Source of the DNA: a virus
Taxonomy: Duplodnaviria > Heunggongvirae > Uroviricota > Caudoviricetes
IMG/VR virus record: IMGVR_UViG_643348545_000012
DNA: 22,074 nt
Strand: one strand, 5' to 3'
Shown one piece after another: positions 1 to 19,888 of this stretch; position 1 is the first letter of the stretch, and each line of letters starts with the position of its first letter. The position numbers and the translations under genes were made by a program. The notes beneath the pieces were generated by a model, which saw only the letters and a list, made by a program, of their open reading frames with translations, had not been told where the DNA came from and ran no database searches.

Positions 1-2109
1 TTACACCATACTGTTAACCTGGCCGGGTAATTCGCTAGCTGGAATACGAAAGGTATACCAGGCATAACGACAGCGTTTCCACAGGCTGGAGAAATGGAGA
101 TGATAAAGGCAATCTGCAATAATTTCGTTATCTGGATATAAAGACTCGGCAAAATGTGTCCAGCGCGCACTGAGTTTCATGTTAAACAGTTTTTCATCTT
201 CTTTGTTACCATACAGGCGCGACAAAGTAATCATTGCTTCGAGCGTACCTTTATTCGCTTCTTCTTGTACCTGTTGGAGGTGCAAATGAGCAAGTGAGAG
301 TTCTTTCACCTCAAAGATATTAAGTAAAAAAAGCCCCCATGCTTTTTCATGTCCAGCTTCATGAGCCAGAAATAAATTGTCAAGGAGATTTTTTTCATAA
401 ATAGCCCGTGTTTCTTTAGAAATTTCTTGTTTATTTAGTGCCTGGTAGCAGATAGCAATGCTAAAATAAATATTTTGTAGATCTTGTTGATGTTCGCTAT
501 AACCATAATTTTTTACCAGTGGATAAGATACCGAGCTATGGAAATTTAGGTCATCTTGAAGTATTTTAAGTGCCCGTCGAAAATACTCCAAAGCTGTAGA
601 TGGTTCATAAGGTAATTTTGTATTGTCTTCCTTATCCAAATATTCAAGAGCAACTAAATTTAATGCGGCAGGAATATTTCTTTGCTTACCAATTGTCGCA
701 AGCGGAATGAAATAATCAGAAAGGTCAAACCAACTCAAATCTTTTATTGCCGACCGCCAATTATGATTGTATTTAATGTCACTAGCTTTTTCCAGCCAAG
801 CATCGCCCTGCCCTTCATCTTTTTCAAAACCCAAAATACCCTCTCGCTGGAAAAACCCCCTATAAATAACAGGTGTAGCATAAGTTGTATTCTGTGAATT
901 TTGGCAGATAAAATTATATATCCAGAATGAATCTGGATAATAACTTAATGCAAATTTTATCGCGTACGCAGTGTAATAATTATTGAGCTTCATGTCTTCC
1001 ATCACCGCTCGCTGTATACAGCACCACAACTTATCGTGATCGTTCTGCTTGTTATAGCAGGCAAGTAACCACTCTAGGGCATTATGGCGACATTCCTGAA
1101 ATTGTGCGTACTGAGCAATATTCTCTGCTAAGTCGATTGCATATTGTTGCTCCTCGGGCGCAATGTCCTCAATGCTGACATCTCGGTAATCATCCCACCA
1201 AAGTAAGAGATCCATATAGTCATGTTCTTCGGTAGATAAGTGCTTACAGGTTACTGAATCCAGCAATTCGGAAATTTCTTTATGCGACCCTCCCCAGCGT
1301 AGCATTCGAAATGGTATATATTCAACAAAAGGATAAAAAGTGTGAGGAAAAATAGTCAGGCAAACAGAAAGCCAATATTTTTGCCCACCATCATCATCAT
1401 ACTCAGGAAGTATATTGGGGCGAGGCAAAACGGGGCATATTGCATGCTCAAACGAAAGTCCGGAATACGCCATCAACGCTTCCACTTCTTGCGGGGAGCG
1501 GCGGTGATAATTTTTCAGTGCGATCATTAATGGTATTCCTGCGACACTATCACCGTTAAGGTGTGCCGCCAGCCAGGCTGGCTGACCAAATACTTTTGAG
1601 TTGGTGCTGGTAAGTAATGCAGCCATCCATTGTCGTGGGTCACAATCAATTGCTTTAAGTGTAGCGATGACCATTTGTTCATTACATGCACCAGCACAAA
1701 GCCACATTGCATGTGTGGTATCATTTGCCCAGCCATAACTGCGATATAACCATGCACGGTGATTCCAGTATTGTGCTTCGGCAAGCCAGGCATGTGTAGA
1801 ATGAGGTCTTGCTTGCTGCCAGGTTTTAATGAGTCTTAAACCTTCTGTTCCGGCATCAACTAGCGTGTTCATATCATAAAAATAGTTGCACATTTGGGTC
1901 CAGGATAAAAAATAGCGCTTTTCAGCCTGACGAGAAGTGAAACTCTCCTGTAATACCTGGTTATAAATTTCATCTAGTTCCTGATAACGTTTTTCTTGTA
2001 ACATATAAGGAATATTTGCGATTTGCCATTTTCTCTCAAGAGTATTAAGTGGCATTTTTTGGTCACACATCTTTTGCATTGCACTGAGTAAACGAGCATC
2101 CTGTTCCAT
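1..2109 (-). CDS. Hypothetical large protein, third gene of AT-rich operon; contains an HEAGH (HEXXH-type) motif near the C-terminus. The ORF extends to 2148 (715 aa) but the ATG at 2109 has an AAGGA Shine-Dalgarno about 7 nt upstream and avoids a 29-nt overlap with the upstream gene.
   Basis: Long uninterrupted ORF in the track (1..2148), stop at positions 1-3; RBS read upstream of the internal Met; low GC compared with neighbouring yegQ. Function not recognised. Confidence 0.6.
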   Translation of the reverse strand: MEQDARLLSAMQKMCDQKMPLNTLERKWQIANIPYMLQEKRYQELDEIYNQVLQESFTSRQAEKRYFLSWTQMCNYFYDMNTLVDAGTEGLRLIKTWQQARPHSTHAWLAEAQYWNHRAWLYRSYGWANDTTHAMWLCAGACNEQMVIATLKAIDCDPRQWMAALLTSTNSKVFGQPAWLAAHLNGDSVAGIPLMIALKNYHRRSPQEVEALMAYSGLSFEHAICPVLPRPNILPEYDDDGGQKYWLSVCLTIFPHTFYPFVEYIPFRMLRWGGSHKEISELLDSVTCKHLSTEEHDYMDLLLWWDDYRDVSIEDIAPEEQQYAIDLAENIAQYAQFQECRHNALEWLLACYNKQNDHDKLWCCIQRAVMEDMKLNNYYTAYAIKFALSYYPDSFWIYNFICQNSQNTTYATPVIYRGFFQREGILGFEKDEGQGDAWLEKASDIKYNHNWRSAIKDLSWFDLSDYFIPLATIGKQRNIPAALNLVALEYLDKEDNTKLPYEPSTALEYFRRALKILQDDLNFHSSVSYPLVKNYGYSEHQQDLQNIYFSIAICYQALNKQEISKETRAIYEKNLLDNLFLAHEAGHEKAWGLFLLNIFEVKELSLAHLHLQQVQEEANKGTLEAMITLSRLYGNKEDEKLFNMKLSARWTHFAESLYPDNEIIADCLYHLHFSSLWKRCRYAWYTFRIPASELPGQVNSMV

Positions 2110-2119
2110 AGATATCCTT

Positions 2120-2836
2120 TTAATTAGGTTCAAAAATTTTAAATTCATTCCACGGCAATTTTTTCCAGTTACTGGATGGATCTTTCAACCATGCAGTGAC
2201 TTCCTTTAAATCACGGTTCGCAGTGGCGACGGGGGTATCGTATATCATTAACCATTTTTGTCGGGCGCGAACATAAGCACTGGCATAATCTTCCCATGAA
2301 GCGAAACAATCTTGTGCTCTTTGAGCATTCAGTAATAACACTATCCAGGCCTGGTTTTCATCGCACCAGCCTAAACCGGCGATGCAACGAGTTAAAAAAG
2401 CAGTGCGCATACAGTCAAACGCCAGCCCATCCAGAACCTGGCCTTGTGCTGCCAGTTGTTCGTAAAAATCATGTGGAGAATTACCAAGCCCTGTAGCCCA
2501 GCGCTGTAATATAACGCCAATTTGTTGACGGAAATCTTCGTTGCTTTGGTAAGTTTCTGTTCCTAGCTCTTGTTTAACCTGTAGTGCAAGTTGTTGACGC
2601 TTATCATCAGTCAACTTTAAATCTAACGTGAAGCCATTTACTGACAGTCCATTACGACGAGCAACTATATCACCAATTGCTAATGCCCACTTACGTCTCT
2701 TTGTTGCTCGTCTTTTGTCCTTGATTAGATCCTTTTCTTTTTCTTTAGCAATAAAAGCATCGATTTGTGGTTTGTTTTTTTTGTATCTATAGATAAAAAT
2801 AAATATTGCGACCAGGAGAACAATGATAAGACTCAT
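2120..2836 (-). CDS. DUF1266-like (YbeU/YbeR-like) protein with N-terminal transmembrane helix
   Basis: 238 aa ORF; N-terminus MSLIIVLLVAIFIFIY is hydrophobic; C-terminal half with W/D-rich pattern ending ...WKKLPWNEF resembles my recollection of the DUF1266 family; start codon overlaps the stop of the upstream gene by 1 nt (TAATG), suggesting translational coupling. Confidence 0.6.
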   Translation of the reverse strand: MSLIIVLLVAIFIFIYRYKKNKPQIDAFIAKEKEKDLIKDKRRATKRRKWALAIGDIVARRNGLSVNGFTLDLKLTDDKRQQLALQVKQELGTETYQSNEDFRQQIGVILQRWATGLGNSPHDFYEQLAAQGQVLDGLAFDCMRTAFLTRCIAGLGWCDENQAWIVLLLNAQRAQDCFASWEDYASAYVRARQKWLMIYDTPVATANRDLKEVTAWLKDPSSNWKKLPWNEFKIFEPN

Positions 2837-4050
2837 TATTTTTCAACCTCTGACAGGGGTAAGTAATGAGATGTCTGTAATGTCAAACTCTCTATCTCAA
2901 AGGAAATGTTGCTGATATTTTGACCTGCAAATTGCGGATGCCACTCAGCGCCAGGGAATAACATTTCCGCAGAAGTAGCAACTATAGGGTCAATAGCATT
3001 AAGATAATGTAACTTATCAGGTGCGCTGTGTAACAGTAACCACTGCAACTCCACTGAAGGATTTGTAAAATGTTCTAATAAATGAAAGTTATTATGTAGT
3101 ACGCTTAGTAAAAAACTGGTTTCGTATACTTCCGTTACATATTTCCACCCCTGATATTCAGGTGTATTTTCATAAACAATACCCATACCTTCACAATCAC
3201 TATGTCGAACTGCTTGTGGTGATAATAGTTGCAAAAGAGACAAAACATCGTCCGCATATTTTTTAACTGGATGACGATTTTGCTTACCTTTTATTTGATC
3301 AATTTCAAGTGAATCACCAACAACATTGAGAGCAATAGTAACATGAGGAATATTATTATTATCACGCAAACTGAATAACCGTAATTTATGTTGCTCAATT
3401 TGATTTGCATAATACTCACCATAACCACCGGTAAGATTTTTTCGATCATCAAACTGGCCTACGCAATGTTGCATATGCCATGATTCATAAGCCATTTCAC
3501 GACGAAGGTTCGAATGACTGGCATCAAACTCAACAATTTTTCCGTCTGGCACATCAAGTATTGACTTTACAGTATTTTGTTCACTCGGCTGCCACCCTTT
3601 CTCGCGTCGTTGAAGCATCTTTTCATGCTCTTCTTCACGCATTCTGAACGCAACGTAGCAGGTTATGCGCTGTAGTTTTGATTCCAGACGGGTACCACAT
3701 TTCCTGGAAAGAAATTCCACCAACTCCCGTTCTTTGGTTAATATTTGTTGATGATCGGTTTCGATATAATAAAGTGTCGCAGTTGATACTGAGGCAGTAT
3801 TAAACTTCGATACCAGCCATTCCGGGATTACATCATCATTTTTATTAAACAGTGAATATTCTGCAAGCGAGTTAATTTGTTGCACCATTGGAAAGTCACT
3901 AATTAGCCATCGATAAAAATGGTTGAGTAACCATTTTTGGATGGTCTCATTATCCTGGCGAAACAGACTTCTTTGCAAAATTGCTGTTTTTACTTCCGGG
4001 GCATTAATTACATCCCTTGCATTATAATTCTGGTGAATATTTCCAGTCAT
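2836..4050 (-). CDS. Hypothetical protein (404 aa), first gene of AT-rich three-gene operon
   Basis: Long ORF in track, AT-rich codon usage, divergent from yegQ; no family recognised by eye. Confidence 0.6.
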   Translation of the reverse strand: MTGNIHQNYNARDVINAPEVKTAILQRSLFRQDNETIQKWLLNHFYRWLISDFPMVQQINSLAEYSLFNKNDDVIPEWLVSKFNTASVSTATLYYIETDHQQILTKERELVEFLSRKCGTRLESKLQRITCYVAFRMREEEHEKMLQRREKGWQPSEQNTVKSILDVPDGKIVEFDASHSNLRREMAYESWHMQHCVGQFDDRKNLTGGYGEYYANQIEQHKLRLFSLRDNNNIPHVTIALNVVGDSLEIDQIKGKQNRHPVKKYADDVLSLLQLLSPQAVRHSDCEGMGIVYENTPEYQGWKYVTEVYETSFLLSVLHNNFHLLEHFTNPSVELQWLLLHSAPDKLHYLNAIDPIVATSAEMLFPGAEWHPQFAGQNISNISFEIESLTLQTSHYLPLSEVEK

Positions 4051-4537: not shown

Positions 4538-5899
4538 ATGTTTAAACCGGAACTCCTTTCCCCGGCGGGAACGCTGAAAAATATGCGTTACGCTTTCGCT
4601 TATGGCGCAGATGCTGTTTATGCGGGCCAGCCGCGTTACTCCCTGCGTGTACGCAACAACGAATTCAACCACGAAAATCTTCAGCTCGGCATCAATGAAG
4701 CCCACGCGCTGGGGAAAAAGTTTTATGTCGTGGTCAACATTGCACCGCACAACGCCAAGCTGAAAACCTTTATCCGTGACCTGAAACCGGTGGTGGAAAT
4801 GGGGCCGGATGCGCTGATTATGTCCGATCCAGGGCTGATTATGCTGGTGCGTGAGCACTTCCCGGAAATGCCAATCCACCTCTCGGTACAGGCTAACGCC
4901 GTAAACTGGGCGACGGTGAAATTCTGGCAGCAAATGGGTCTGACCCGCGTGATCCTCTCTCGCGAACTGTCACTGGAAGAGATTGAAGAGATCCGCAATC
5001 AGGTGCCGGATATGGAGATCGAAATCTTCGTTCACGGCGCGCTGTGCATGGCCTACTCCGGTCGCTGCCTGCTCTCTGGCTATATCAACAAGCGCGACCC
5101 GAACCAGGGCACCTGCACCAACGCCTGCCGCTGGGAGTATAACGTCCAGGAAGGGAAAGAAGATGACGTCGGCAACATCGTACACAAGTACGAGCCGATT
5201 CCGGTGCAAAATGTTGAGCCGACGCTGGGTATCGGCGCGCCAACCGACAAAGTGTTTATGATCGAAGAAGCCCAGCGTCCGGGCGAGTATATGACCGCGT
5301 TTGAAGATGAGCACGGCACTTACATCATGAACTCGAAAGATCTGCGCGCCATCGCCCATGTTGAACGCCTGACCAAAATGGGCGTGCATTCGCTGAAAAT
5401 CGAAGGCCGTACCAAATCTTTCTACTATTGCGCACGCACCGCGCAGGTTTACCGTAAAGCTATCGATGACGCCGCTGCGGGCAAACCGTTCGATACCAGC
5501 CTGCTGGAAACTCTGGAAGGTCTGGCGCATCGTGGCTATACCGAAGGTTTCCTGCGTCGTCATACCCACGACGATTATCAGAACTACGAATACGGTTATT
5601 CGGTTTCTGACCGTCAGCAGTTTGTTGGTGAGTTTACCGGTGAGCGCAAGGGGGAGCTCGCGGCGGTAGCGGTGAAAAATAAATTCTCCGTTGGCGACAG
5701 CCTTGAGCTGATGACGCCGCAAGGCAACATTAACTTTACCCTTGAGCATATGGAAAACGCCAAAGGTGAAGCGATGCCGGTCGCACCAGGCGATGGTTAT
5801 ACTGTGTGGCTCCCGGTGCCGCAGGATCTTGAGCTAAATTACGCGCTGCTGATGCGTAATTTCTCCGGGGAAACCACGCGTAACCCCCACGGTAAGTGA
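4538..5899 (+). CDS. yegQ: U32-family peptidase-like protein YegQ/TrhP (tRNA hydroxylation-associated)
   Basis: 453 aa ORF beginning MFKPELLSPAGTLKNMRYAFAYGADAVYAGQ with the EIFVHGALCMAYSGRC U32 signature; GAGAG RBS just upstream of the ATG; matches recalled E. coli YegQ in length and sequence. Confidence 0.93.
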   Translation: MFKPELLSPAGTLKNMRYAFAYGADAVYAGQPRYSLRVRNNEFNHENLQLGINEAHALGKKFYVVVNIAPHNAKLKTFIRDLKPVVEMGPDALIMSDPGLIMLVREHFPEMPIHLSVQANAVNWATVKFWQQMGLTRVILSRELSLEEIEEIRNQVPDMEIEIFVHGALCMAYSGRCLLSGYINKRDPNQGTCTNACRWEYNVQEGKEDDVGNIVHKYEPIPVQNVEPTLGIGAPTDKVFMIEEAQRPGEYMTAFEDEHGTYIMNSKDLRAIAHVERLTKMGVHSLKIEGRTKSFYYCARTAQVYRKAIDDAAAGKPFDTSLLETLEGLAHRGYTEGFLRRHTHDDYQNYEYGYSVSDRQQFVGEFTGERKGELAAVAVKNKFSVGDSLELMTPQGNINFTLEHMENAKGEAMPVAPGDGYTVWLPVPQDLELNYALLMRNFSGETTRNPHGK

Positions 5900-5931
5900 T
5901 TAATTTCGATTATTTTTCCCGGATGGAAAAT

Positions 5932-5976
5932 TCTTAGAAACCGATCACATACAGCTGCATTTATTAAGGTTATCAT
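5932..5976 (+). promoter_or_regulatory. Putative CRP-dependent promoter of cyaR (CRP half-site TCACA centred near -41.5; -10 TATCAT at 5971-5976)
   Basis: Sequence ttcttagaaaccgatcacatac resembles the CRP consensus (right half exact); TATCAT is 7 nt before the inferred cyaR 5' end. Known biology: cyaR is CRP-activated. Confidence 0.45.
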
Positions 5977-5983
5977 CCGTTTC

Positions 5984-6070
5984 GCTGAAAAACATAACCC
6001 ATAAAATGCTAGCTGTACCAGGAACCACCTCCTTAGCCTGTGTAATCTCCCTTACACGGGCTTATTTTTT
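5984..6070 (+). ncRNA. cyaR: CyaR (RyeE) Hfq-dependent small RNA, 87 nt, with Rho-independent terminator
   Basis: Sequence gctgaaaaacataacccataaaatgctagctgtaccaggaaccacctccttagcctgtgtaatctcccttacacgggcttatttttt matches the CyaR sequence as I recall it; 3' hairpin (gcctgtgtaa / ttacacgggc) followed by a T-run. Confidence 0.8.
6044..6070. repeat. P2-type attachment core (27 bp, aatctcccttacacgggcttatttttt), left prophage junction; overlaps the cyaR terminator
   Basis: Exact 27-bp direct repeat with 21402-21428; reverse complement equals the P2 att core sequence as I recall it. Confidence 0.75.
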
Positions 6071-6134
6071 ACGCGTAATACAATGAAATAAAAGGATTTA
6101 TTTCTGGTCACGTCCACACATTGACCACATCGAC

Positions 6135-6158
6135 AAAAAAGCCCCTCGACTGAGGGGC
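6135..6158 (-). terminator. Rho-independent terminator downstream of ogr (hairpin GCCCCTC-gact-GAGGGGC with T-run on the minus strand)
   Basis: Perfect 7-bp stem at 6141-6158; aaaaaa at 6135-6140 gives a U-tract on the minus strand directly after the stem. Confidence 0.6.
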
Positions 6159-6171
6159 TTTCTGTTTGTAA

Positions 6172-6390
6172 TTACATCCACATAATTTGCTGCCCTGACG
6201 GCAACGGGTGCGGCCTTACGGCGTGGACTTCTCCCGGCTTCACGATGTATCTCTGTACCGACTCATAAGTGATGAACGTGGCGCTGCAATTCACGTTCTG
6301 GCACTGGTGATAACGCTCTTTTGTCGTGTCAGTGATATAGCGGCTTGTACGCGCATGTGCGGCATGCTGGCATAAAGGACAATGAAACAT
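6172..6390 (-). CDS. ogr: Ogr-type zinc-finger late-gene transcriptional activator (72 aa)
   Basis: Internal Met of the 99-aa ORF gives MFHCPLCQHAAHARTSRYITDTTKERYHQCQNVNCSATF..., a C-x2-C...C-x4-C zinc finger matching P2 Ogr / E. coli OgrK. Confidence 0.9.
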   Translation of the reverse strand: MFHCPLCQHAAHARTSRYITDTTKERYHQCQNVNCSATFITYESVQRYIVKPGEVHAVRPHPLPSGQQIMWM

Positions 6391-6470
6391 CGCGAGCACC
6401 TCTTCCGGTTTTGTTAATGGTGCCATTTTATTTAATTTATCCTTATAAAACAAACAGATAAAACAAAACA

Positions 6471-7634
6471 TTAATCATCATCTTCTGTTTCGTACTCCAC
6501 ATCAGAAAGCCTGACCTCAAGCTCTAAGGACGTCGTGAAGCCGCTATTATTCAGAAAATGTGTCACCTTAGTGATTGTCCAGTCCTGCTCGTCTATGACG
6601 CGCTTAAAGCCTGACACTCTGACCGGTGTTTCCGTGTAAATATCAGCACGACCAGTGGCAAGGCTGATGGAGAACTCCGCAACGCCCCGTTGCAGTTTAT
6701 CCCACTTCGCCTGAGCGGCGCGCATGGCCTGCGCTTTCGTGGCATATACCGTGGTCAGGGCAAAAACGTTGTCAGCTTCACCGGCCATGTATTCACCTTC
6801 GCGCGCTTCCGGTACTTTTGGCGCTTTCTTCTGCGTGACTGGTTTCGCTTTCGGGTGCTCCAGTGCGCGCAGGTGTTTCTCTTTCTTTTTGCGTTTCAGT
6901 TTTACCTTCTGCTTTTGCGGCTTCGGGTCTTTGGTGTGTAACCACTTTGCCGTTACGCCGGTATAGGCTCCACGGTCAGCAATCGCAAAATGATGGCGGT
7001 CGCCGTCGCTGCGGGTTATGGTGACCTGCGGGATTTTTTTACCGCTGGCCGTCACCCCCTGCCCCGCTTTGAGAAACAACAGTTTTCCCATTTTTACCGA
7101 CACCTCACCGCCGTTGCGTTCTGCAAGACGGGTCAGGAATTTCGCATCAGACTCCTGCGACTGGTCGATGTGCGGGATTTTAATTCCGGCCAGTGACGGC
7201 GCGACACTGGCTTCCAGCCTGTTACGGGAGGCTATCGCCTCAACAATCGCACCGAGCGTGGTGTCATGCCATGACCCTTCACGGCGGGAATTGAGCGTCC
7301 CGCGAAAATCTGCACTCCGGGCGCGGATGGTGACCACATCCGGTGCGCCCCGGTGTTCAACCTCATCAACGGTAAATTTCCCTTTGCATACCAGGGCAAA
7401 ACCTTTCCAGCCGATATACACCTTCAGAACAGCACCACGAACCGGCAGTTCGACCTGCCCGTCGGCATCGTTCAGTTCAATATCAAGCTGGTCAGCCTCA
7501 AAGCCCCGGTTATCCGTCAGGGTCATGCTCATCAGACGGTCGCTGATATTGCCGGTAATATCCCTGCTGTCGAGCATCAGCATGTAATCCGGCGTCAGCG
7601 TACTGCCTGCATCAAATGTCAGCGCATCCAGCAT
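6471..7634 (-). CDS. D: P2-like tail protein D (late control gene D product)
   Basis: 387 aa ORF, same length and gene order as P2 gpD (immediately upstream of ogr). Confidence 0.9.
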   Translation of the reverse strand: MLDALTFDAGSTLTPDYMLMLDSRDITGNISDRLMSMTLTDNRGFEADQLDIELNDADGQVELPVRGAVLKVYIGWKGFALVCKGKFTVDEVEHRGAPDVVTIRARSADFRGTLNSRREGSWHDTTLGAIVEAIASRNRLEASVAPSLAGIKIPHIDQSQESDAKFLTRLAERNGGEVSVKMGKLLFLKAGQGVTASGKKIPQVTITRSDGDRHHFAIADRGAYTGVTAKWLHTKDPKPQKQKVKLKRKKKEKHLRALEHPKAKPVTQKKAPKVPEAREGEYMAGEADNVFALTTVYATKAQAMRAAQAKWDKLQRGVAEFSISLATGRADIYTETPVRVSGFKRVIDEQDWTITKVTHFLNNSGFTTSLELEVRLSDVEYETEDDD

Positions 7635-8113
7635 TATCCCGCCCCCGTCATACCCGTGAATCTGGTCGCCACACTGCCAGCCTTACCGATGAGCGATTCC
7701 GCCTGTTTACCGATATCGCCATAAAGCGCGGCCAGTGATTCATCCACGCGGGTGAGCGACAGCGTAAAATCAATTTTCCGGGGTGTGCCGTCTGCAAAGA
7801 AAATACTCCCTGTTTCACTCACCCTGCTGATGACATACATGCCGTAAATCATGCCGGTGCCATCCAGCAACGGCCACGCCCGGCCTTCCTCTGCCATCAG
7901 CCTGAGCGTGGTCATCGTCAGCTTCCCGCCGGTCAGTTCGGGATAAAGCACGCCGGCAAGCGTCATGTTTTCCTCACCCACACCGAGAAACTGAAAGGCA
8001 TCCCGTTTACCGATACGGGAATTTGACGGCCAGCGATAATCTGATTCACGCTGCATGGTCTGGTGTGGCAGCGTCTGGCGCATAAAAACAAACATACCTA
8101 ACGCGAGCATCAT
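7634..8113 (-). CDS. U: P2-like tail protein U
   Basis: 159 aa ORF; position between T and D; stop overlaps the D start (coupled). Confidence 0.88.
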   Translation of the reverse strand: MMLALGMFVFMRQTLPHQTMQRESDYRWPSNSRIGKRDAFQFLGVGEENMTLAGVLYPELTGGKLTMTTLRLMAEEGRAWPLLDGTGMIYGMYVISRVSETGSIFFADGTPRKIDFTLSLTRVDESLAALYGDIGKQAESLIGKAGSVATRFTGMTGAG

Positions 8114-8127
8114 TTTTCGTCACCTCC

Positions 8128-10575
8128 TTAACCGTCATGCATCATGCTGGCACGGGCACGCGCACGTTTATCCCGCTCGTATTTTTCGAGCGCATCCTGT
8201 AACTGGCGGTCAAGCTGTGTCCCCGGCGCAGTACCACCCGTCAGGCTGATGTGATATTCGTTTTTACTCTGGTCCACATAAGAGCGGCCAGCCAGTGCCG
8301 TGACTGGCTGATAAGCCTGATAGCCTGCATAAGAGCTGGTCGCCGGAATATAACCACCGGTGCCATACGTGGCGGCATGAGTTCTGGCGGCGGTCTGGTC
8401 AAGTGTGTCTGACTCTTTGTTGATGACCCCGAGCTTTTCCAGTACCCAGGCAATACCGCTGCGCAGTTTGTTGAACGCATTAAGCGGCAGCATCAGCGCG
8501 TCAGCCAGTGCCTGCCCGAACATGACACCCGTGTCACGGCAACGGTTCAGGGTGTCCTGGGTGGCTTTGACCGGGGCAATCAGGTTTTTAAACCACTGCC
8601 ACGCGGCCTGTAACTTTTCGCCCAGCCAGTCAAACACCGGCTTAAGTGGCATGAACAGTTCCCCCACCGGCGCAAATGCCGCTTTCAGCCCTTCCACCAC
8701 ACCGCCAAAGAATGCGCTGACAGGCTCCCAGTATTTACGGATAAGCAACGCCCCGGCGACAATGGCGGCCACCACGGCCACAACCGGCCAGCTAATCGCC
8801 CCGATGGCCGTCATAACAGCACTGCCAACCGTCGTGAAGATTGCCCCCATTGCGCCTGCTGCCGCGATAATGGCATTGATGCCGGTGATAACCGGCCAGG
8901 CTACAAGACCAATGGCACCGATGATGCCAGTCAGCGCCAGTGCGCCACCGGCAATGAGGCCGGTGGTTGACGCCAGTGATTTGTTTTTCTGGATCCAGCC
9001 GTCGAGTTTTAGCACATACTTTGTGGCTGTCTGCGTGAGATTACGCAGTGCGCCTTCCTGCTGGTCAAACAGGTCAGTCCCCACCGCCTCATAAGCGGAC
9101 TGAAACTCCTTAAAGTCACCGCCGAGGTTGTCCTGCATGATATTTACCAGCTCGGCGGTCTTCCCGTCTGAGGCTTTAAACGCAGCGGTCAGTTTGTCCA
9201 GCTTTCCGGTTGAGGCGGCAGTCATCAGCACGGCGGCGGCTGAGCTGGCCTCTTCCCCGAAAATAGTTTTCATGTATTCAGCCTGCTGGGCAGTACCGAG
9301 CCGGTTTTTCTCAAAACTGGCCTGCATTTCTTTCAGAATGGTAAATACTGGTCGGGTGTTTCCCTTGCTGTCTGAGGTTTTCACACCAAGCTCTTTCAGT
9401 GCATCCCACGCTTTTCCCGTCGGTGCCTGCAGGCGGCTTAACACGGCACGGCTTCCCGTCCCCGCCATTGAGCCTGTGATTTTTGCATCATGCAGCGCCC
9501 CGACCATTGCGGCGGTTTCTTCAATGCTGACACCGGCATTTTTTGCCACAGGTGCGGCATAGGTCAGCGCATCGCTCATGCCGTCAAAATCGGCGGCGGT
9601 TTTGTTCATCGTCATGGAGAGAACATCCCCGATATGAGCGACCTTATCGTTTGAAAGCTGAAAGGCGGATTTCATCCCCATCAGCAGGGCGGCGTTTTCT
9701 TCCATCGTGCGACGGTTCGCCAGCGCCATATTCAGCGTGACCGGCGTTGCCGCCTGAATGGCATCAACATCCCCACCGGCTTTTGCAATGATAATCTGCG
9801 CACCGGCTGCATCATCCGCCGAGGCGGCGGTGTTGTCGCCGAGCTGGCGCGCCTGTTTGCGGAGCGCGGCCATTTCGGCGGAGTCTTTTGCCACGCCGAG
9901 CACAGCCTGTAATTCTGAGTTTTTCTGCGCAAACTCATAACCGGGCATCAGCAGCTTAACTCCGGCCATCGTTCCCGCCGCCGCAATCCCCACACCGGCA
10001 GCGCCCACTGAGGCCATATTTCCGGCCAGTTCCTTTCCGGCCTGATAACGCTGTTTGACTGCGTTAAGTTTTGCCTGTTGCGCGCTGACACGCGCCAGCG
10101 CGTCACGCTGCCGGTTAAGCTGCGCGGTGGTTTCACTGATACGGTTTTTCAGCCCCTGCTCATCATGTGCAAGATTGCGGGTATTAATTCCCACAGCAGC
10201 CAGTTCCCGCTGCTGGCGTTTAACGGAATCCGTCAGGCGGTTATATTTCGCCTGTAAGTCCTCCGCCGCTCGCTTTGCGGATTCCAGCACTTTCGCCTGA
10301 GCACGGGTCGGACGTTCGGTATTTTTAAACTGTGTGGCAAGGGCTTCGGCTTCCAGCCGTGCCTTCTCAAGTGCATGACCAGTCACGGCGAGCTGTGCGC
10401 TGGTCTTGCGAAATCCCTCAATACGGGATGCGTGACCGTTCAGCTCGCGCAGTGATTTTTGTGTGTCCCGGATATCCCCCGACAGCGACTTGCTCGCTGT
10501 ACGGATGGATTTAAACGGGCGGGATGCCTGGTCAACAGCCCTGAGCAATACCTGTAATTTTACATTGTTACTCAT
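8128..10575 (-). CDS. T: Tail tape-measure protein (P2 gpT-like)
   Basis: 815 aa ORF with coiled-coil-rich N-terminus and Gly/Ala-rich hydrophobic central segment, typical of tape-measure proteins; lies directly downstream of E/E'. Confidence 0.92.
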   Translation of the reverse strand: MSNNVKLQVLLRAVDQASRPFKSIRTASKSLSGDIRDTQKSLRELNGHASRIEGFRKTSAQLAVTGHALEKARLEAEALATQFKNTERPTRAQAKVLESAKRAAEDLQAKYNRLTDSVKRQQRELAAVGINTRNLAHDEQGLKNRISETTAQLNRQRDALARVSAQQAKLNAVKQRYQAGKELAGNMASVGAAGVGIAAAGTMAGVKLLMPGYEFAQKNSELQAVLGVAKDSAEMAALRKQARQLGDNTAASADDAAGAQIIIAKAGGDVDAIQAATPVTLNMALANRRTMEENAALLMGMKSAFQLSNDKVAHIGDVLSMTMNKTAADFDGMSDALTYAAPVAKNAGVSIEETAAMVGALHDAKITGSMAGTGSRAVLSRLQAPTGKAWDALKELGVKTSDSKGNTRPVFTILKEMQASFEKNRLGTAQQAEYMKTIFGEEASSAAAVLMTAASTGKLDKLTAAFKASDGKTAELVNIMQDNLGGDFKEFQSAYEAVGTDLFDQQEGALRNLTQTATKYVLKLDGWIQKNKSLASTTGLIAGGALALTGIIGAIGLVAWPVITGINAIIAAAGAMGAIFTTVGSAVMTAIGAISWPVVAVVAAIVAGALLIRKYWEPVSAFFGGVVEGLKAAFAPVGELFMPLKPVFDWLGEKLQAAWQWFKNLIAPVKATQDTLNRCRDTGVMFGQALADALMLPLNAFNKLRSGIAWVLEKLGVINKESDTLDQTAARTHAATYGTGGYIPATSSYAGYQAYQPVTALAGRSYVDQSKNEYHISLTGGTAPGTQLDRQLQDALEKYERDKRARARASMMHDG

Positions 10576-10995
10576 TCGTGTTTCCGCTTCGCCGGAGCGC
10601 CTTTTCGCGCCATGTGATGAGTTCGGTCAGGCTCATGGGATACAGTTCTGATGGCGGCCAGTGAAATATCACTGCCACATCCGCCATCAGGTCATCGACC
10701 GACAGATTTTTCGGAAACGTCACTGCACCGAGTTCGGCGACAAAAAACCGACCACCTTACCGGCCAGCGCCACAAGGTCAGGCAGTTCCAGCGCGGCGAC
10801 TTCCTGCTCGGTCAGCATCGGTGCCGTCATGCGCGGCAGCACCTTAATCAGTGCATCGACTTCGGAGTTTGCAACCGCAGCCAGACTGACACCGCGCAGC
10901 GTCCCGGCATTGGGTTTCATCAGCGTGACCTGTTCGATAACCTGCTCACCACGTTTGACCGGATTTTCCAGGGTAATGACATTTTCTTTGTTCAT
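10568..10995 (-). CDS. E': E+E' fusion produced by programmed -1 ribosomal frameshift at T_TTT_TTG (reverse complement of 10741-10747); E' extension ends at TAA 10568-10570, overlapping the T start
   Basis: Slippery heptamer read directly; the -1 frame is open from the slip site to 10568 and encodes ...FFVAELGAVTFPKNLSVDDLMADVAVIFHWPPSELYPMSLTELITWREKALRRSGNTNE; frame arithmetic is consistent with a -1 shift; matches the known P2 E/E' mechanism. Confidence 0.7.
10720..10995 (-). CDS. E: Tail assembly chaperone E (P2 gpE-like), 91 aa
   Basis: ORF MNKENVITLENPVKRGEQ...GFLSPNSVQ; position between FII and T; contains slippery heptamer near its 3' end. Confidence 0.88.
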   Translation of the reverse strand: MNKENVITLENPVKRGEQVIEQVTLMKPNAGTLRGVSLAAVANSEVDALIKVLPRMTAPMLTEQEVAALELPDLVALAGKVVGFLSPNSVQ

Positions 10996-11051
10996 GGTTT
11001 TCTCACTTCTGAATCAGGGTTAACCGGTCAGCCTGGCTGACCGTATGAAAA

Positions 11052-11570
11052 TCACAGGCCGATATTTCGGCGGTGTTGCTCCAGCCGGTCGACGCCGTTC
11101 ACCTTCTCAATCATGTTGATGGTGTCGATTTCGACCAGCTCCTTACCGTCCATCGTCAGCCGGAAATAAGTACAAATCACCGGGAGTTTCGATTCGGTAT
11201 CCTCTCCCTGTTTACCCTCTCCGGTGTCGACTTCTTTCTGACGCCCACGCATGACCACTTCGACGGCCACCGTTTCGCCGGTATCGTCGCGCTGGTAAGA
11301 ACCAGCAAAACGAATCGGTACGGCATCAGCACTGGTTGCAGCGTAAAGCTCCCAGATAACCGAATCCGGGAAACCCCCGAGCGACCACTCCATTGACAGC
11401 GCATCGTCATCAAGGCCGAGGTCTACCGGTGCGCTGCCGTTCATCCCCGCACCGCGATAATTTTCGAGCTTACGGGTCAGTTTTGGCAGCGTGACGGACG
11501 TTGCAACGCCCTGATAGCTGTAGCCGTTCAGAAAGACATTCATGTATTTGAGTTTGCGCGGCATTGCCAT
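11052..11570 (-). CDS. FII: Major tail tube protein (P2 gpFII-like)
   Basis: 172 aa ORF, gene order sheath-tube-E-T as in P2. Confidence 0.9.
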   Translation of the reverse strand: MAMPRKLKYMNVFLNGYSYQGVATSVTLPKLTRKLENYRGAGMNGSAPVDLGLDDDALSMEWSLGGFPDSVIWELYAATSADAVPIRFAGSYQRDDTGETVAVEVVMRGRQKEVDTGEGKQGEDTESKLPVICTYFRLTMDGKELVEIDTINMIEKVNGVDRLEQHRRNIGL

Positions 11571-11582
11571 CGGTCAGGCTCC

Positions 11583-12773
11583 TTAATTGCTGTTAACCGA
11601 GGTGACCAGATTTGCCAGGTATTTATCGGTAATACGCTGGCGCAGGGTCAGGTTTTCGAGAGGAGGCACCGGGGTATAGTCGTAGTCGATATACAGTTTT
11701 CCGGCCTTGAGGGTTTCCGCATCGTTGGATTCTTCGCTGAACCAGCAGGTCGCATCCACGATATAGCCGTTTGTTTTCAGCTCTCGGAATTTGGCATTGA
11801 TGCCGTCAACGATGTCGCGAATCAGCGTTGCGGTGATGGGCTTGTCCACCGCCCACATGTGCGCCTCAGCCATCGTGTCGGCCAGCACCTGCGCGGTGCG
11901 GGTGTAGTTTTCAAAGAGGAACAGCGGGTCATCAGAGCAGGTACGGTTACCCCAGAAGCGGAAACCGTCACGGCGAATCAGCGTTGTGACGCCTGACTCG
12001 TTAAGCAGGTCAGCATCGGTGCCGGACTCCTGCAAATCCCAGAATACGGACGCGCTGATGCCGGTAACACCGTTTACCCCGACGTTGGACAGCGTTTTAT
12101 GCCAGCCCTGCTCCTGGTCGATTTTAGCGCGCAGACCCAGCGCACGGGCGGTGGCATACGCGGTGGCGGTGGTACTGGTGACCGTATCCCATGCGAGGAA
12201 ATCCGGCCAGATGACCATCAGCTCACGCTGGCTGAAATTCTGGCGGTAGGCTTTCACCTCGGAAATGGTCTTACAGCCCCATGCGCTGATATATCCGAAA
12301 GCGCGCAGCTTCTGACAGACGGATGCCAGTGCAACAGCCACCTCTTTGGTATCCAGTCCCGGCACACCGAGAATACGCGGTTTAACACCGGTTACCGACT
12401 CCGCCGCCAGCAGGGCTTTTAGTCCGGTGTACTGACCGTTTTCGTCGGTGGTGCCGATGATATTGGAAACGGTCTGCGCGAGTTTCGTTTCCTCGTCATC
12501 ACCGGTGCCGTCTTCCACGCGCACGACAACGGTGACCGGTTTTGACTGGTCAGCGATGGCCTGCAACGATGCCGCCAGCGTGCCTTTTTTACCGGCCTTT
12601 GCAATTGCGCTTTGCACATTGGTAATCAGCACCGGTTTATTGAGGGGGAAGGTTTCCGCATCCGCATCGCTGGCCGTGCAGACCATGCCGACAATGGCAG
12701 TGGATACGGTGGAAATGACGCGGGTGCCGTCGTTAATCTCCAGCACCTGCACGCCATGATGATAGTCACTCAT
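11583..12773 (-). CDS. FI: Tail sheath protein (P2 gpFI-like)
   Basis: 396 aa ORF beginning MSDYHHGVQVLEINDG, same length and position as P2 gpFI. Confidence 0.92.
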   Translation of the reverse strand: MSDYHHGVQVLEINDGTRVISTVSTAIVGMVCTASDADAETFPLNKPVLITNVQSAIAKAGKKGTLAASLQAIADQSKPVTVVVRVEDGTGDDEETKLAQTVSNIIGTTDENGQYTGLKALLAAESVTGVKPRILGVPGLDTKEVAVALASVCQKLRAFGYISAWGCKTISEVKAYRQNFSQRELMVIWPDFLAWDTVTSTTATAYATARALGLRAKIDQEQGWHKTLSNVGVNGVTGISASVFWDLQESGTDADLLNESGVTTLIRRDGFRFWGNRTCSDDPLFLFENYTRTAQVLADTMAEAHMWAVDKPITATLIRDIVDGINAKFRELKTNGYIVDATCWFSEESNDAETLKAGKLYIDYDYTPVPPLENLTLRQRITDKYLANLVTSVNSN

Positions 12774-12869
12774 CCGTTTAACTCCGTGGTTAATGGGTGC
12801 AACTATTTTCTGTTGGGCAGTGCATGAGACGCTATTTGACCTGACTGGTCAGTGGATGAAACAACAGAT

Positions 12870-12898
12870 AAAGAAAAGGCGGGCAATTCGCCCGCCTG
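12870..12898 (-). terminator. Rho-independent terminator (hairpin GGCGGGC-aattc-GCCCGCC followed on the minus strand by TTTTCTTTAT), separating the cargo module from the FI late operon
   Basis: Perfect GC-rich 7-bp stem at 12880-12898 with T-rich tract on the minus strand. Confidence 0.55.
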
Positions 12899-12952
12899 TC
12901 CTGATTTGTACTCACTCATTTTCCGCCTGACAATTTACATAGCCCAAATGCT

Positions 12953-12975
12953 ATCAAATCTGACAGTCTGCTTTG
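12953..12975. repeat. Site A: atcaaatctgacagtctgctttg, copy 1 of a ~22-bp putative recombination site
   Basis: Shares the exact 11-mer ctgacagtctg plus flanks with sites at 15262-15284 (direct, 21/23) and 15384-15405 (inverted). Confidence 0.6.
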
Positions 12976-13103
12976 AGCGAAAAGTGGACATTAGAGTTAC
13001 AAAAGCAAGTTTAAATCATCCAAAATATTACAATGTCCTTATCTATCTGATATCGTTATAATAAAAAGCTCCTGAATATAATCGATAGTAGGTGGTTATT
13101 TCC

Positions 13104-13481
13104 ATGAAATCAATTTTAGAGGTTTTTACTCAAGGAAATACTAAAGAAAAACTGGCTGTTATCGCCGATCTCACAACCATTGCGGGAATATCGATTGCAA
13201 CTATTATTGCTGGTTTGTTAACCCTAGTTGCAAAAACAGATAAACTAGATGTTGGAAATCTGTTTGGAGTTGTCATAATATCTCTGCTCGGATTGGCTGG
13301 TGTTTGCTGTTTTGTGGCCTTATTTATTTGGGTTATAACCCAAATGTCTAAACCATGGGGAACACCTCGGGGGGTTCAGCCCTTAGTTAAGTGTGCTATT
13401 TCCCTTATCTTTATCTGTATGTTTTTGCTGGCTGTCTTTACATTTTATGAGTTTATTTCTTCGATGAGCATACGCTATTGA
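13104..13481 (+). CDS. Small integral membrane protein (about 125 aa, 3 predicted TM helices), cargo gene
   Basis: ORF in track (13092..13481, likely ATG at 13104 with aggtgg RBS); three long hydrophobic stretches; AT-rich. Confidence 0.55.
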   Translation: MKSILEVFTQGNTKEKLAVIADLTTIAGISIATIIAGLLTLVAKTDKLDVGNLFGVVIISLLGLAGVCCFVALFIWVITQMSKPWGTPRGVQPLVKCAISLIFICMFLLAVFTFYEFISSMSIRY

Positions 13482-13503
13482 ATATAAAATCAGCCCCCAT
13501 AAC

Positions 13504-14088
13504 TTAAAAGAGACCTTCTATATCGACTTCAATGCCCAAATAACGGACTGTGCTTTCCAGTTTCTTATGGCCCAACAGAAGTTGGATCACCCGGAGACTC
13601 TTGGTTTTCTTGTAGATTAAGTAAGGTTTTGTTCTTCTCATGGAATGTGTGCTGTACAGCGAATCTTCGAGACCAAGCTTTTCTACCCACCCATGAAAAA
13701 TTCGGTTGTATTGCCGGGTTGATATATGGTGGTTAGTTCCGACCCGAGAGCGGAACAGGAAGCCTTTACTATGCCAGTTGCCGAGCTTTATCAATGCAGT
13801 AACCGCTTCCCTTGTCCCTTTGGTTATCTCAAATTGGACAGGGCTGCCGGTTTTCTGTTGCAACACCGTTGCTCTGCTTGAGACAGAACTGCCATATGCA
13901 GCATCTGATACTTTGAGTTTGACCAAATCACAGCCCCGTAGCTTAGTGTCCAAAGCCATGTTGAACAGAGCTAGATCGCGTGTTTTACCTTCCAACTCAA
14001 GTCTAATCCGGATCCCCCAGATATGAGATATCTGAAGTGGCCTTTTTTGACCGATGGTACGGTCTTTATTCCACGGTGACGTTTTCAT
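13504..14088 (-). CDS. Short tyrosine recombinase (FimB/FimE-sized, about 194 aa)
   Basis: C-terminus HSMRRT...LLGHKKLESTVRYLGIEVD carries the box II H-x-x-R, second His and nucleophile Tyr; earlier TKLRGCDL supplies a candidate box I Arg. The track ORF starts at 14190, but the ATG at 14088 has an AGGAG RBS 8 nt upstream and gives a protein the size of FimB/FimE. Confidence 0.75.
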   Translation of the reverse strand: MKTSPWNKDRTIGQKRPLQISHIWGIRIRLELEGKTRDLALFNMALDTKLRGCDLVKLKVSDAAYGSSVSSRATVLQQKTGSPVQFEITKGTREAVTALIKLGNWHSKGFLFRSRVGTNHHISTRQYNRIFHGWVEKLGLEDSLYSTHSMRRTKPYLIYKKTKSLRVIQLLLGHKKLESTVRYLGIEVDIEGLF

Positions 14089-14194
14089 ATTCAAATCTCC
14101 TGCAATGTGGGAGATTTGAGTATGGTTGTCTCTCAAGAGCGAAAATAAGTCAACTATCACTAGTTGTTGCGCATGTACGTATTCTGTCAATTAA

Positions 14195-15037
14195 TTATTG
14201 ACAATCATCAATTCTGGAATGATCAAAATCATCATATCGAATTATAGTCTGGTTGACTGTATCTATTGTTGGTGTCATTTCTGTTATAATATCCTGATAA
14301 CCTAAAGAGTTAAATACATTTACTAAGGCCTCACACCGAAGGGCCGTAGCAATTACAAAATTATAAATTGCCAGCCGTTTATTTTCTTGTTTAACTGCAA
14401 GAATGAATTCGATAGCAGTATTTTCATCACTTTGGATTGCATTATATAGAGATACTATATTTACCATATCATCAGAGAATGTATGTATTGAATCACAAAG
14501 GGGAACGTAATGGGCATGATAGTGTGTTTCCCAGCCAATTAATTCAAAAAGTTTTCTGGTTCCTGGATATTCAGGTGTATTTGGCCACAATCTATTAAAT
14601 AGATCAGTTAGTTCTTTTCCCATGCGAATCCTTTCATTTGCTGCTGGATTAGTCATTCCTTTGGATTTTAAACACTCCAGCCACCGTTTTCCATTACTAT
14701 GAACTAATTTCTTACTAGCCTTGAGTAATGCTTGTGCATTTTCGCCATCATCTATTGCTATATAAAATTGATTGGCAGCCTGTTCTATTATAACCCTAGC
14801 TAATACTTCCGATGCTGAAAAGGCTCCTATATTCAAAGAAGAGATAGCCTGATTACTAAGTTCATTCAGTACATTAAAGTACTGTAAGACCATCAATTTT
14901 TGTTCCACACCCTTTAGGTTGTCTATTTTATTTTTATGCTCCTCAAATTTTGCATGGATATATTTATTTATCGCGGCTATTTTTTTTACATCTTCGTCAA
15001 GATCAAACGGGCAACGTCCAAACAATTCTTTTTTCAT
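14195..15037 (-). CDS. Hypothetical cytoplasmic protein (280 aa), cargo gene upstream of the recombinase
   Basis: ORF with AGGAG RBS 7 nt upstream of ATG; AT-rich; no recognisable motif (no RT YxDD, no clear nuclease or HEPN motif). Confidence 0.6.
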   Translation of the reverse strand: MKKELFGRCPFDLDEDVKKIAAINKYIHAKFEEHKNKIDNLKGVEQKLMVLQYFNVLNELSNQAISSLNIGAFSASEVLARVIIEQAANQFYIAIDDGENAQALLKASKKLVHSNGKRWLECLKSKGMTNPAANERIRMGKELTDLFNRLWPNTPEYPGTRKLFELIGWETHYHAHYVPLCDSIHTFSDDMVNIVSLYNAIQSDENTAIEFILAVKQENKRLAIYNFVIATALRCEALVNVFNSLGYQDIITEMTPTIDTVNQTIIRYDDFDHSRIDDCQ

Positions 15038-15075
15038 ATATTTCTCCTGTTGTACAAGCTTCCATAAGTTGGCAG

Positions 15076-15110
15076 ATTATACACTGAAGATTACCTATAA
15101 ATAGCTGTGC
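15076..15110 (-). promoter_or_regulatory. Candidate sigma70 promoter for the 280-aa cargo gene (perfect TATAAT on the minus strand at 15081-15076; weak -35)
   Basis: Reverse complement of attata at 15076-15081, about 38 nt upstream of the ATG at 15037; -35 element poor, so speculative. Confidence 0.3.
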
Positions 15111-15261
15111 GGGATAGCAGATCAGTGCAAGAAGTACAACCAAGTGAATGTGCGTATTCAGATACCTGGCCTAACGTTCGCGATAGCCGTCCCCTGCACG
15201 AAGCCATATATTAGATGTATTAGCTCAGACCTTATCTGACAGGTTGAGTAGGTAGAATCTA

Positions 15262-15284
15262 ATCAAAGCTGACAGTCTGGTTTG
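15262..15284. repeat. Site B: atcaaagctgacagtctggtttg, direct copy of site A
   Basis: 21 of 23 positions identical to site A; read directly. Confidence 0.6.
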
Positions 15285-15383
15285 GACTGTGAGTTCAACC
15301 GATGGATGCAACACACAGCGATCTACGGACATTACTAGCATAGCTGTGTATTAATCATCGGGAAGCAGGTCAGTCCGCTCCTA

Positions 15384-15405
15384 GCACAGAGCAGACTGTC
15401 AGATT
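15384..15405. repeat. Site C: inverted copy of the site (reverse complement aatctgacagtctgctctgtgc); also part of a 10-bp-stem hairpin tagcacagag...ctctgtgcta (15382-15423)
   Basis: Reverse complement matches site A at 20 of 22 positions; lies 47 bp downstream of the G stop codon. Confidence 0.6.
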
Positions 15406-15457
15406 AGGCTTTACTCTGTGCTATAGATACGTTAGCTCACTCCAGAGATCATACAAC

Positions 15458-15985
15458 TTATTGCGGCATTTCCGGCCATTCAGGATTTGCAGGATCCACA
15501 CGGCTGACCAGAACACTGTAGCGTTCCCATGCTTCCAGTCGGCTACGCTCCTCATCTGTTGCCATATTCAGTCTGACAGAGCGTTCCAGTGGCTGAATGA
15601 TAGTTTCAGCTTCGGAAAGCAAAGCTGACTTCTGTAATTCCGCCAGTTGCAGCTGTTCGTCTGCCGTATAAATCCGCTTAATCACGGCACCATCCTTAAA
15701 CATCCATTTACCTGAGTCATCAGCACGTCGGTTGGCGGTAATATCAGGAACCTCGACAACGCTAAAACCTTCAGGGTTGAGCGTTGAAGCATCTCTGGTG
15801 ATGCCGACAATTATATTATTCTCATCGTAAACAATCTTTATCGTGTCTTCCTGAAAATTACTTACTTCCTCATACCAGTTTTTTCCCTCTTCGGACCATA
15901 ACCAGATAACATCAAAATTTTTTGTCAGTTGATATTGGGCAACAGTTTTTGGATTACCCGCAGTAATATTTTTTAAATGCTGCAT
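15458..15985 (-). CDS. G: Tail fiber assembly chaperone (P2 gpG-like)
   Basis: 175 aa ORF immediately downstream of the tail fiber gene; same length as P2 gpG; Tfa-like sequence. Confidence 0.88.
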
Positions 15986-15988
15986 AAA

Positions 15989-18094: not shown

Positions 18095-18104
18095 TATTCC
18101 TCAC

Positions 18105-18635
18105 TTATCCGGGGTAAACCGTAATTACATCGCCGTCGTAAGCCACACCACCGGCGAACAGGTAGCCGGGAATGTCCCGGGTAATGTTCAGGCCAATAAG
18201 GTGACGGCTTGCAGGTTTGGCATCAGCAATCAGCCGTTCCATTTCCTGATACATTGCCTCTGTGATACCGCTTTCCAGTACACCAATATCAAGCCGGAAG
18301 GTGCCGGGCGGGTCACTGTTTTCCCACCACTCCGTCACGTTGATGAGATAGCCGAGCGGCTCCACCACACGCCGGATTGCACCTATCGTGCCCTTATGAC
18401 AGTGGATGAAATAGGCATCGCGGATAACGGCGCGTTTTGTCGCTTCCGGCCACTTTTCATCCCATCTGTCGACCGAAAACGCCCACGCCAGCCACGGCAG
18501 CAGATTTGCCGGACAGGTATTCGGGTTCCACAGATCACGAATACTGACCGGCGTTTTTTCAATTTCCGCACAGGCTTTTGCGGCGGCAACTTCAAGCGGT
18601 GATGAGCCGGTCGGCAGCAGTCGCGAATCACTCAT
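18105..18635 (-). CDS. I: Baseplate assembly protein I (P2 gpI-like)
   Basis: 176 aa ORF, position between J and H. Confidence 0.9.
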   Translation of the reverse strand: MSDSRLLPTGSSPLEVAAAKACAEIEKTPVSIRDLWNPNTCPANLLPWLAWAFSVDRWDEKWPEATKRAVIRDAYFIHCHKGTIGAIRRVVEPLGYLINVTEWWENSDPPGTFRLDIGVLESGITEAMYQEMERLIADAKPASRHLIGLNITRDIPGYLFAGGVAYDGDVITVYPG

Positions 18636-19536: not shown

Positions 19537-19540
19537 GGTT

Positions 19541-19888
19541 TCAACTCACAGGGATGGTTAACGAAAGTGGCTGGCCGGTGTCGTTGTGCTGGCCGGTTAA
19601 CGTGACCGTCATTCGCCCGTCAAAACTGCGCGCCGTGGTGACGGATGACAGGGTGACGCGGGGTTCCCATTTCAGCACTGCCATGTAACAGGCGACTTTA
19701 ATCTGCAACTCAAGCGCCGGGGTCTGCGGCTGGTCAATCATTGACGCCAGCAACGAGCCGTAATCACGACGCATCACCCGTGAGCCGACCGGTGTGCGCA
19801 GGATATCGCCGATACTCTGGCTGATATGCTCAAGGTCAGTGACAGTCAGGCCATCACTGCGATTCATTCCGAGATAACGCGCTGTCAT
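19541..19888 (-). CDS. W: Baseplate protein W (gp25/GPW family)
   Basis: 115 aa ORF beginning MTARYLGMNRSDG; start overlaps V stop (ATGA). Confidence 0.9.
   Translation of the reverse strand: MTARYLGMNRSDGLTVTDLEHISQSIGDILRTPVGSRVMRRDYGSLLASMIDQPQTPALELQIKVACYMAVLKWEPRVTLSSVTTARSFDGRMTVTLTGQHNDTGQPLSLTIPVS

Follow-up and report, generated by a model that had tools for sequence, protein, structure and literature searches.

A P2-derived prophage remnant whose 27-nt attachment core is the 3′ end of the small RNA gene cyaR

INTRODUCTION

A number of phages are known to integrate at the 3′ ends of RNA genes. Phage 186 is found in tRNA-Ile, Fels-2 and SopE-phi are found in ssrA, and a P2-type element is found at rybB; the Salmonella sdsR locus provides a further example (PMC3448106, PMC3032704, PMC3333887). 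A preliminary description of the DNA analysed here had referred to the use of sRNA and tRNA 3′ ends by phages as a known pattern, and this is borne out by two of these sources (PMC3333887, PMC3448106). The integrase of P2, Int, is a tyrosine recombinase that binds both core and arm sites and acts together with IHF, and excision also requires Cox (PMC3448106; annotation of AF063097). With regard to cyaR itself, Archer et al. (2011; PMC3032704, Table 2) gave ‘cyaR RNA’ as a P2 insertion site, with Wphi2 in E. coli W, ogr-D′ in K-12 and P2*B in E. coli B. Transcription of CyaR is governed by cAMP-CRP (PMC3333887, PMC8916003). The site, the core and the control of cyaR by CRP have thus all been described previously. 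We take the present site to be P2 locI of Barreiro and Haggard-Ljungquist (1992).

Here we describe a P2-derived element at this site in a stretch of 22,074 nt (hereafter the window; IMG/VR record IMGVR_UViG_643348545_000012). The locus shares with the known P2 elements at cyaR (PR-X ogrK-yegZ, Wphi2 and P2*B) the 27-nt core, the position between yegQ/cyaR and yegR, and the organisation of the arms. Unlike PR-X of K-12 and the full-length prophage of strain ATCC 11775, it has an 18.6-kb deletion of its own, which has taken int and spared ogr, the tail genes and both att sites. As in phages that use the ends of tRNA, tmRNA and sRNA genes, attP bears the 3′ end of the RNA gene and the gene is rebuilt upon integration. 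However, the core in the window is 27 nt and comprises the descending half of the terminator only, compared with the 50-110 nt shared in tRNA-integrating relatives (PMC3448106). We regard the locus as a clean textbook case of a phage using the 3′ end of an RNA gene, and it opens no new question. The base-precise limits of the P2-derived island and the untouched sRNA gene are useful for annotation. Beyond this, three additions are mildly informative: the core is the 3′ half of the terminator, a tail remnant without int has intact att sites, and the ‘empty’ site contains an arm relic.

RESULTS

The cyaR gene and its neighbours

The entire window was scanned with Rfam, and CyaR_RyeE (RF00112) was the sole family above the gathering score. 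The match at 5982-6067 spans model positions 1-85 of 85 and scores 100.7 bits, compared with a gathering score of 47 (E = 2.1e-19). When window positions 5984-6070 were aligned with the annotated cyaR of K-12 MG1655 (b4438, 87 nt), all 87 of the 87 nt were identical. The sRNA had been named cyaR in the preliminary description, and the Rfam score and the K-12 alignment both confirm that name. No ORF longer than 45 aa overlaps the gene, and none of the ORFs that do overlap it has any support. On the basis of the identity to the K-12 gene, CyaR is probably functional in the present strain, and its expression, its binding of Hfq and its regulation of targets would be expected to follow those of K-12.

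The gene order is the same as in K-12, with yegQ upstream of cyaR and yegR past the element. The features of the locus are listed in Table 1. yegQ/trhP is the conserved upstream neighbour of cyaR; its stop at 5899 is followed by a short spacer and then by cyaR. Farther upstream, positions 1-4050 carry on the minus strand three genes for a DUF4034 protein (715 aa), a DUF1266 protein (238 aa) and a PcfJ-like protein (404 aa). Some strains, ATCC 11775 and NU14 among them, carry the block at 100% identity, and it is present at a coverage of at least 80% in only 298 of 5426 complete genomes. The defence-system models of PADLOC gave no match of note for the 1-4050 island.

Table 1. Positions of host, attachment-site and phage features in the window
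Feature	Position	Strand	Basis or description
yegQ/trhP, peptidase U32 family, 453 aa	4538-5899	+	Pfam Peptidase_U32 and C-terminal domain; yegQ/trhP annotation in matching E. coli genomes
CRP-like site, 22-mer	5931-5952	+	TTAGA 5934-5938, N6, TCACA 5945-5949; centre 5941.5
−10 hexamer TATCAT of cyaR promoter	5971-5976	+	Sequence reading; without −35 hexamer
cyaR (ryeE), sRNA gene, 87 nt	5984-6070	+	Rfam RF00112 and K-12 identity
cyaR Rho-independent terminator hairpin	6035-6062	+	11-bp stem, 6-nt loop UCUCCC; terminator scan and fold
att core copy 1, attR-type junction (cyaR body / core / P arm)	6044-6070	+	Exact 27-mer, cyaR nt 61-87
cyaR U tract	6065-6070	+	After terminator hairpin
P2 P arm: IHF site about 6069-6102, Int arm-type site about 6106-6133	6069-6133		AF063097 24324-24357 and 24293-24320, gap-free alignment
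ogr / F-operon terminator	6138-6161		P2 feature 24265-24288; terminator scan
P2 ogr, D, U, T, E/E′, FII, FI (late activator and tail)	6172-12773	−	ORF lengths equal to those of P2
Cargo in P2 Z/fun hotspot	12774-15457	−	228-aa tyrosine recombinase, 280-aa DUF5677 protein, small ORFs; Pfam, PHROGs
P2 G, H, I, J, W, V (tail fibre and baseplate)	15458-20538	−	84-97% identity to P2 15358-10308
orf30 homologue, cut after codon 227, out-of-frame fusion to int 3′ end	20604-21317	+	phrog_2407 positions 1-233 of 261
Last 41 nt of int (21282-21322), P′ arm Int sites and Cox-binding region	21282-21401		99.3% identity to P2 24502-24355
att core copy 2, attL-type junction (P′ arm / core / host), orphan	21402-21428	+	Exact 27-mer
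Degenerate P-arm-like relic, host side of core copy 2	21440-21489		Repeat, 71% over 49 nt
yegR, host gene beyond element, 105-aa ORF	21757-22074	−	yegR annotation in matching genomes

The repeated 27-mer is the P2 attachment core

The last 27 nt of cyaR (AATCTCCCTTACACGGGCTTATTTTTT) occur exactly twice in the window, at 6044-6070 and at 21402-21428, both times on the plus strand. No such repeat was obtained in 100 dinucleotide-preserving shuffles. The identity between the two copies extends over 28 nt, with one additional base on the right (A at 6071 and 21429) and none on the left. The 27-mer is also identical to the annotated attP core of phage P2 (AF063097, 24356-24382), and the homology to P2-family phages, at ∼97% identity, begins exactly at 6044, which is the first base of the core. 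The preliminary description had proposed that the end of cyaR is an att core repeated at the far end of the element, and had suggested comparison with the P2 core; the repeat and the match to P2 are both exact. Since the two copies are identical, the point of crossover within the core cannot be located.

Each copy is joined to one of the two P2 arms. According to the naming of the arms in P2, the junction on the cyaR side is of the attR type, with the P arm, and that on the yegR side is of the attL type. In the P′ arm, the Int sites lie at about 21288-21314, where GTGTCCACA occurs twice, and the Cox-binding region lies at about 21312-21385 (features of AF063097). The hairpin of the ogr / F-operon terminator next to the P arm is symmetric and folds on both strands, with −18.1 kcal/mol on the plus strand and −20.0 kcal/mol on the minus strand.

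The core contains the 3′ half of the cyaR terminator

The predicted fold of the cyaR terminator hairpin has an energy of −15.9 kcal/mol (z −5.6). Across 111 distinct cyaR sequences of Enterobacterales species, 98.9% of cells in the stem are paired, and compensatory changes are found at 9 of its 11 pairs; the observed values were not reached in any of 500 shuffles of these 111 sequences. The hairpin together with the U tract had previously been equated with the core. This is correct for the loop, the 3′ arm and the U tract, but not for the 5′ arm: the core starts at 6044, which leaves 9 of the 11 nt of the 5′ arm in sequence belonging to the host only. What the core does contain is the loop and the U tract, together with the whole 3′ arm but only the final 2 nt of the 5′ arm. 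The 3′ arm within the core co-varies with a 5′ arm that is absent from the phage.

With only 2 nt of the 5′ arm in the core, the orphan copy at the far end is unable to fold into a terminator. The fold of 21388-21433 has an energy of −3.5 kcal/mol (z +0.9), and no terminator is formed. A second partial cyaR or another RNA at this copy was also looked for, and the Rfam matches there were at the level of chance only.

Empty and occupied sites in other genomes

An empty site of 543 nt was reconstructed by joining positions 5900-6070 to 21429-21800 and was searched against 5426 complete E. coli genomes. Many E. coli strains, 536 and F11 among them, contain it as one uninterrupted piece with 100% identity, and its coverage is at least 80% in 882 of the 5426 genomes. 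Since the empty site is found intact elsewhere, the 15,358 bp that separate the cores are an inserted segment whose boundaries are defined to within the core. The base-precise boundaries that had been claimed for the element are therefore upheld by the perfect match of the reconstructed site.

Other occupants of the site were compared with the window. In the type strain ATCC 11775 the space from cyaR to yegR is occupied by a full-length P2-like prophage whose int adjoins yegR. In K-12 the cryptic prophage PR-X is annotated as beginning inside cyaR, and this remnant keeps only ogrK, a D fragment and a partial right core, TACACGGGCTTATTTTTTT. At the right end of PR-X (about 2800-2830 of the K-12 locus, L002), TACACGGGCTTATTTTTTT is fused directly to the D′ (yegZ) fragment, and the P-arm relic of the window (see below) comes next.

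We also compared the end of cyaR in 120 species loci. The exact P2 core was present in only five of them: E. coli, an E. coli-like record labelled Enterobacter hormaechei, and three Kluyvera. In the same 120 loci the core variants of Klebsiella and Enterobacter are one base off the P2 core. A P2-type arm directly follows the local core variant in Citrobacter youngae, in a Buttiauxella MAG and in an Enterobacter. Related phages therefore use the end of cyaR in these genera too.

Two of these loci deserve a brief description. In the Buttiauxella MAG (L087), a P2-type P arm lies at the usual offset after the cyaR terminator, and the 3′ arm of that terminator, TTGCACGGGCC, has a C-A mismatch to the 5′ arm, GGCCCGCGCAA. 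The mismatch may date from the integration of a phage with a core slightly different from that of the host. The record labelled Enterobacter hormaechei B56 (CP170191.1) is 98% identical to the window over yegQ-cyaR and has the exact P2 core; judged by this identity to an E. coli window and by the core, it looks mislabelled. The DNA past its core is neither a P2 arm nor the E. coli relic.

The element is an integrase-less remnant of a P2-type prophage

BLAST aligned the element with P2 in three main blocks. Window positions 6044-12988 correspond to P2 24382-17433 (96.4% identity), 17369-21283 to P2 13459-9545 (97.5%) and 21282-21429 to P2 24502-24355 (99.3%). At the junction 21282/21283, position 9545 of P2, inside orf30, is joined to position 24502, 41 nt before the int stop, with an overlap of 2 nt. 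The orf30 homologue is consequently cut: 225 of its first 227 aa are identical to those of P2 Orf30 and are followed by 10 unrelated residues. P2 24503-33593 and 1-9544, or 18,635 bp, are absent from the element. The genes lost are int (except its last 41 nt), C, cox, B, A, tin, old, cos, the head genes, X, the lysis genes, R and S. The remaining 15,358 bp consist of ogr, tail genes and cargo, with attL and attR complete. The prophage of the preliminary description has P2 att junctions at both ends, but with 18,635 bp of P2 missing it is not a complete phage genome with an integrase adjoining attL; it is a 15.4-kb remnant without integrase and not a functional prophage.

P2 has a length of 33.6 kb, and the far end of the prophage was initially expected outside the window. 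The second core inside the window refuted this expectation, and it was this core that revealed the internal deletion.

The junction 21282/21283 was found in none of the 5426 complete E. coli genomes, where the best match was a different remnant, that of ETEC4088. The junction is probably specific to this strain, with an assembly error less likely. An error could be suspected from the overlap of just 2 nt and from the failure to see the junction in other complete genomes, and it is one of three ways in which the 27-mer might be no attachment site at all, the others being a chance repeat and the target-site duplication of a transposon. Taken together these origins are extremely unlikely. An assembly artefact that joined two unrelated P2 fragments could explain the internal deletion at most and never two att junctions. 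The repeat is identical to the annotated attP core, it has the correct P and P′ arms beside it, and the empty site exists in other genomes. A chance repeat or a target-site duplication is ruled out by the shuffles, the match to the attP core and the arms.

The gene content of the element allows a further reading, in which the 15.4-kb segment is a retained and possibly domesticated tail-only module of the tailocin type under its own ogr. In all tail ORFs from V to D, and in ogr, the length is that of the P2 counterpart and the DNA identity is 96-97%, and the genes for head, lysis and replication are cleanly gone. However, the essential tail genes X, R and S have also been deleted, as have the holin and endolysin. 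The junction is unique in comparison with the 5426 complete genomes, which indicates a recent accident and not a maintained state, and other strains have decayed differently at the same site. We therefore find a tail module very improbable.

Integration at the end of cyaR

On the basis of the observed identities, the anatomy of the junctions, the empty site, the covariation of the stem and the endpoints of the deletion, we are confident that a P2-type phage integrated at the last 27 nt of cyaR without harm to the RNA gene, and that an internal deletion then left the remnant. We found nothing that speaks against this account. A P2-type phage with an identical 27-bp attP core would have recombined at the end of cyaR by means of its tyrosine integrase and IHF. 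This mechanism is carried over from what is known of P2 and from the annotation of AF063097. With the core the same in phage and host, the junction on the cyaR side, the RNA, its terminator and its poly-U tail would all remain unchanged. Hfq-dependent sRNAs, of which CyaR is one, need such a poly-U tail. The gene in the window is indeed unaltered by the insertion because the exchanged segment is identical in phage and host, and its complete identity to K-12 cyaR agrees with the proposal in the preliminary description that integration regenerates the 3′ end of the sRNA.

The second core would have come to lie at the far end, preceded by phage DNA and without the 5′ stem arm of the host, as a recombination scar only. 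An internal deletion of 18.6 kb afterwards would account for a remnant that has both att sites and no integrase of its own. We infer from this arrangement that integration came first and deletion second. Since int has been deleted, the remnant is immobile by itself, although both att sites look complete.

A P-arm-like relic on the host side of the second core

The host DNA beyond core copy 2 contains a degenerate stretch that resembles the P arm (Table 1). Its local alignment score is 22, compared with 7.4 ± 1.2 for shuffled sequences, and none of 2000 shuffles scored as high. The relic is also present in the empty-site E. coli genomes and in K-12. In Escherichia sp. E1V33 (L063) and in one Kluyvera (L052), cyaR is directly followed by yegS, and both the relic and yegR are lacking.

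These observations suggest a refinement of the history given above and not a strict rival to it, namely that the phage entered a core left by an earlier P2-like element, so that attB of E. coli is itself the scar of an old prophage. The DNA from the core to yegS, including the P-arm relic and possibly yegR, would then be the remains of the earlier occupant. We lean slightly towards this reading. The P-arm-like stretch lies at the right offset from the core and scores well above the shuffles, and its presence in empty-site genomes and K-12, together with the absence of both relic and yegR from E1V33 and Kluyvera, is as expected from it. On the other hand, the relic is only ∼50 nt long at 71% identity, no phage homology was detected for yegR, and the comparison consists of a few outgroup genomes.

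A broader version, in which the 3′ end of cyaR has been used repeatedly and the ‘unoccupied’ site of E. coli is the scar of an older P2-like prophage, is put forward tentatively and we consider it somewhat doubtful. It would go together with P2-like phages of Citrobacter, Buttiauxella and Enterobacter that track the terminator variants of their hosts. From time to time such phages may leave the sRNA with a mismatched 3′ arm; the C-A mismatch in the Buttiauxella MAG can be compared. If the end of cyaR has indeed been used repeatedly, its terminator has many times exchanged its 3′ half for a phage copy.

The CRP-like site and the cyaR promoter

A CRP-like site upstream of cyaR had been noted near −41.5. 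Measured from the annotated 5′ end of cyaR (5984), its centre is at −42.5, and in view of the spacing and conservation described here the earlier assignment is a fair one. Counted from first base to first base, TCACA precedes TATCAT by 26 nt, and the spacing at galP1 of K-12 is the same. At galP1, which is a class II CRP promoter, the site lies at −41.5. A promoter scan of 5800-6500 yielded no full sigma-70 match with both −35 and −10 hexamers, and the lack of a −35 hexamer fits a class II, activator-dependent promoter. The sequence of the cyaR promoter thus has the class II arrangement, in which the CRP site lies over the −35 region near −41.5.

The site is well conserved. TCACA is found upstream of cyaR in 118 of 120 Enterobacterales species loci, and 103 of these 118 also have TTAGA at a spacing of 6 nt; the flanking G and A are nearly invariant. 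TAT(T/C)AT is kept at the −10 position across enterobacterial cyaR loci. In comparison with the TGTGA-N6-TCACA consensus the left half site of cyaR is weak (TTAGA versus TGTGA), yet it is conserved. The literature and the conserved site together make it probable that the cyaR promoter in the window depends on CRP. The primary paper on this promoter is that of De Lay and Gottesman (2009). No mention of cyaR was found in the supplements of the CRP papers searched.

The cargo and the tail-fibre gene

PADLOC gave no match of note for the cargo in the Z/fun hotspot. Its DUF5677 protein belongs to phrog_4167, and a 129-aa ORF belongs to phrog_4155. The cargo is bounded by 33-nt inverted repeats at 12957-12989 and 15373-15405, and a third copy is present at 15236-15293. 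Only the flanks of the cargo match P2-like phages, in which ‘left/right inverted repeat’ features are annotated. The same cargo is carried by the full-length ATCC 11775 prophage.

The tail-fibre gene H contains, at window positions 16955-17614, four tandem units of 132 nt that are 77-100% identical to the reference copy. P2 has a single match of 208 nt to this region (P2 13252-13459), and the length of H is 701 aa in the window, compared with 669 aa in P2.
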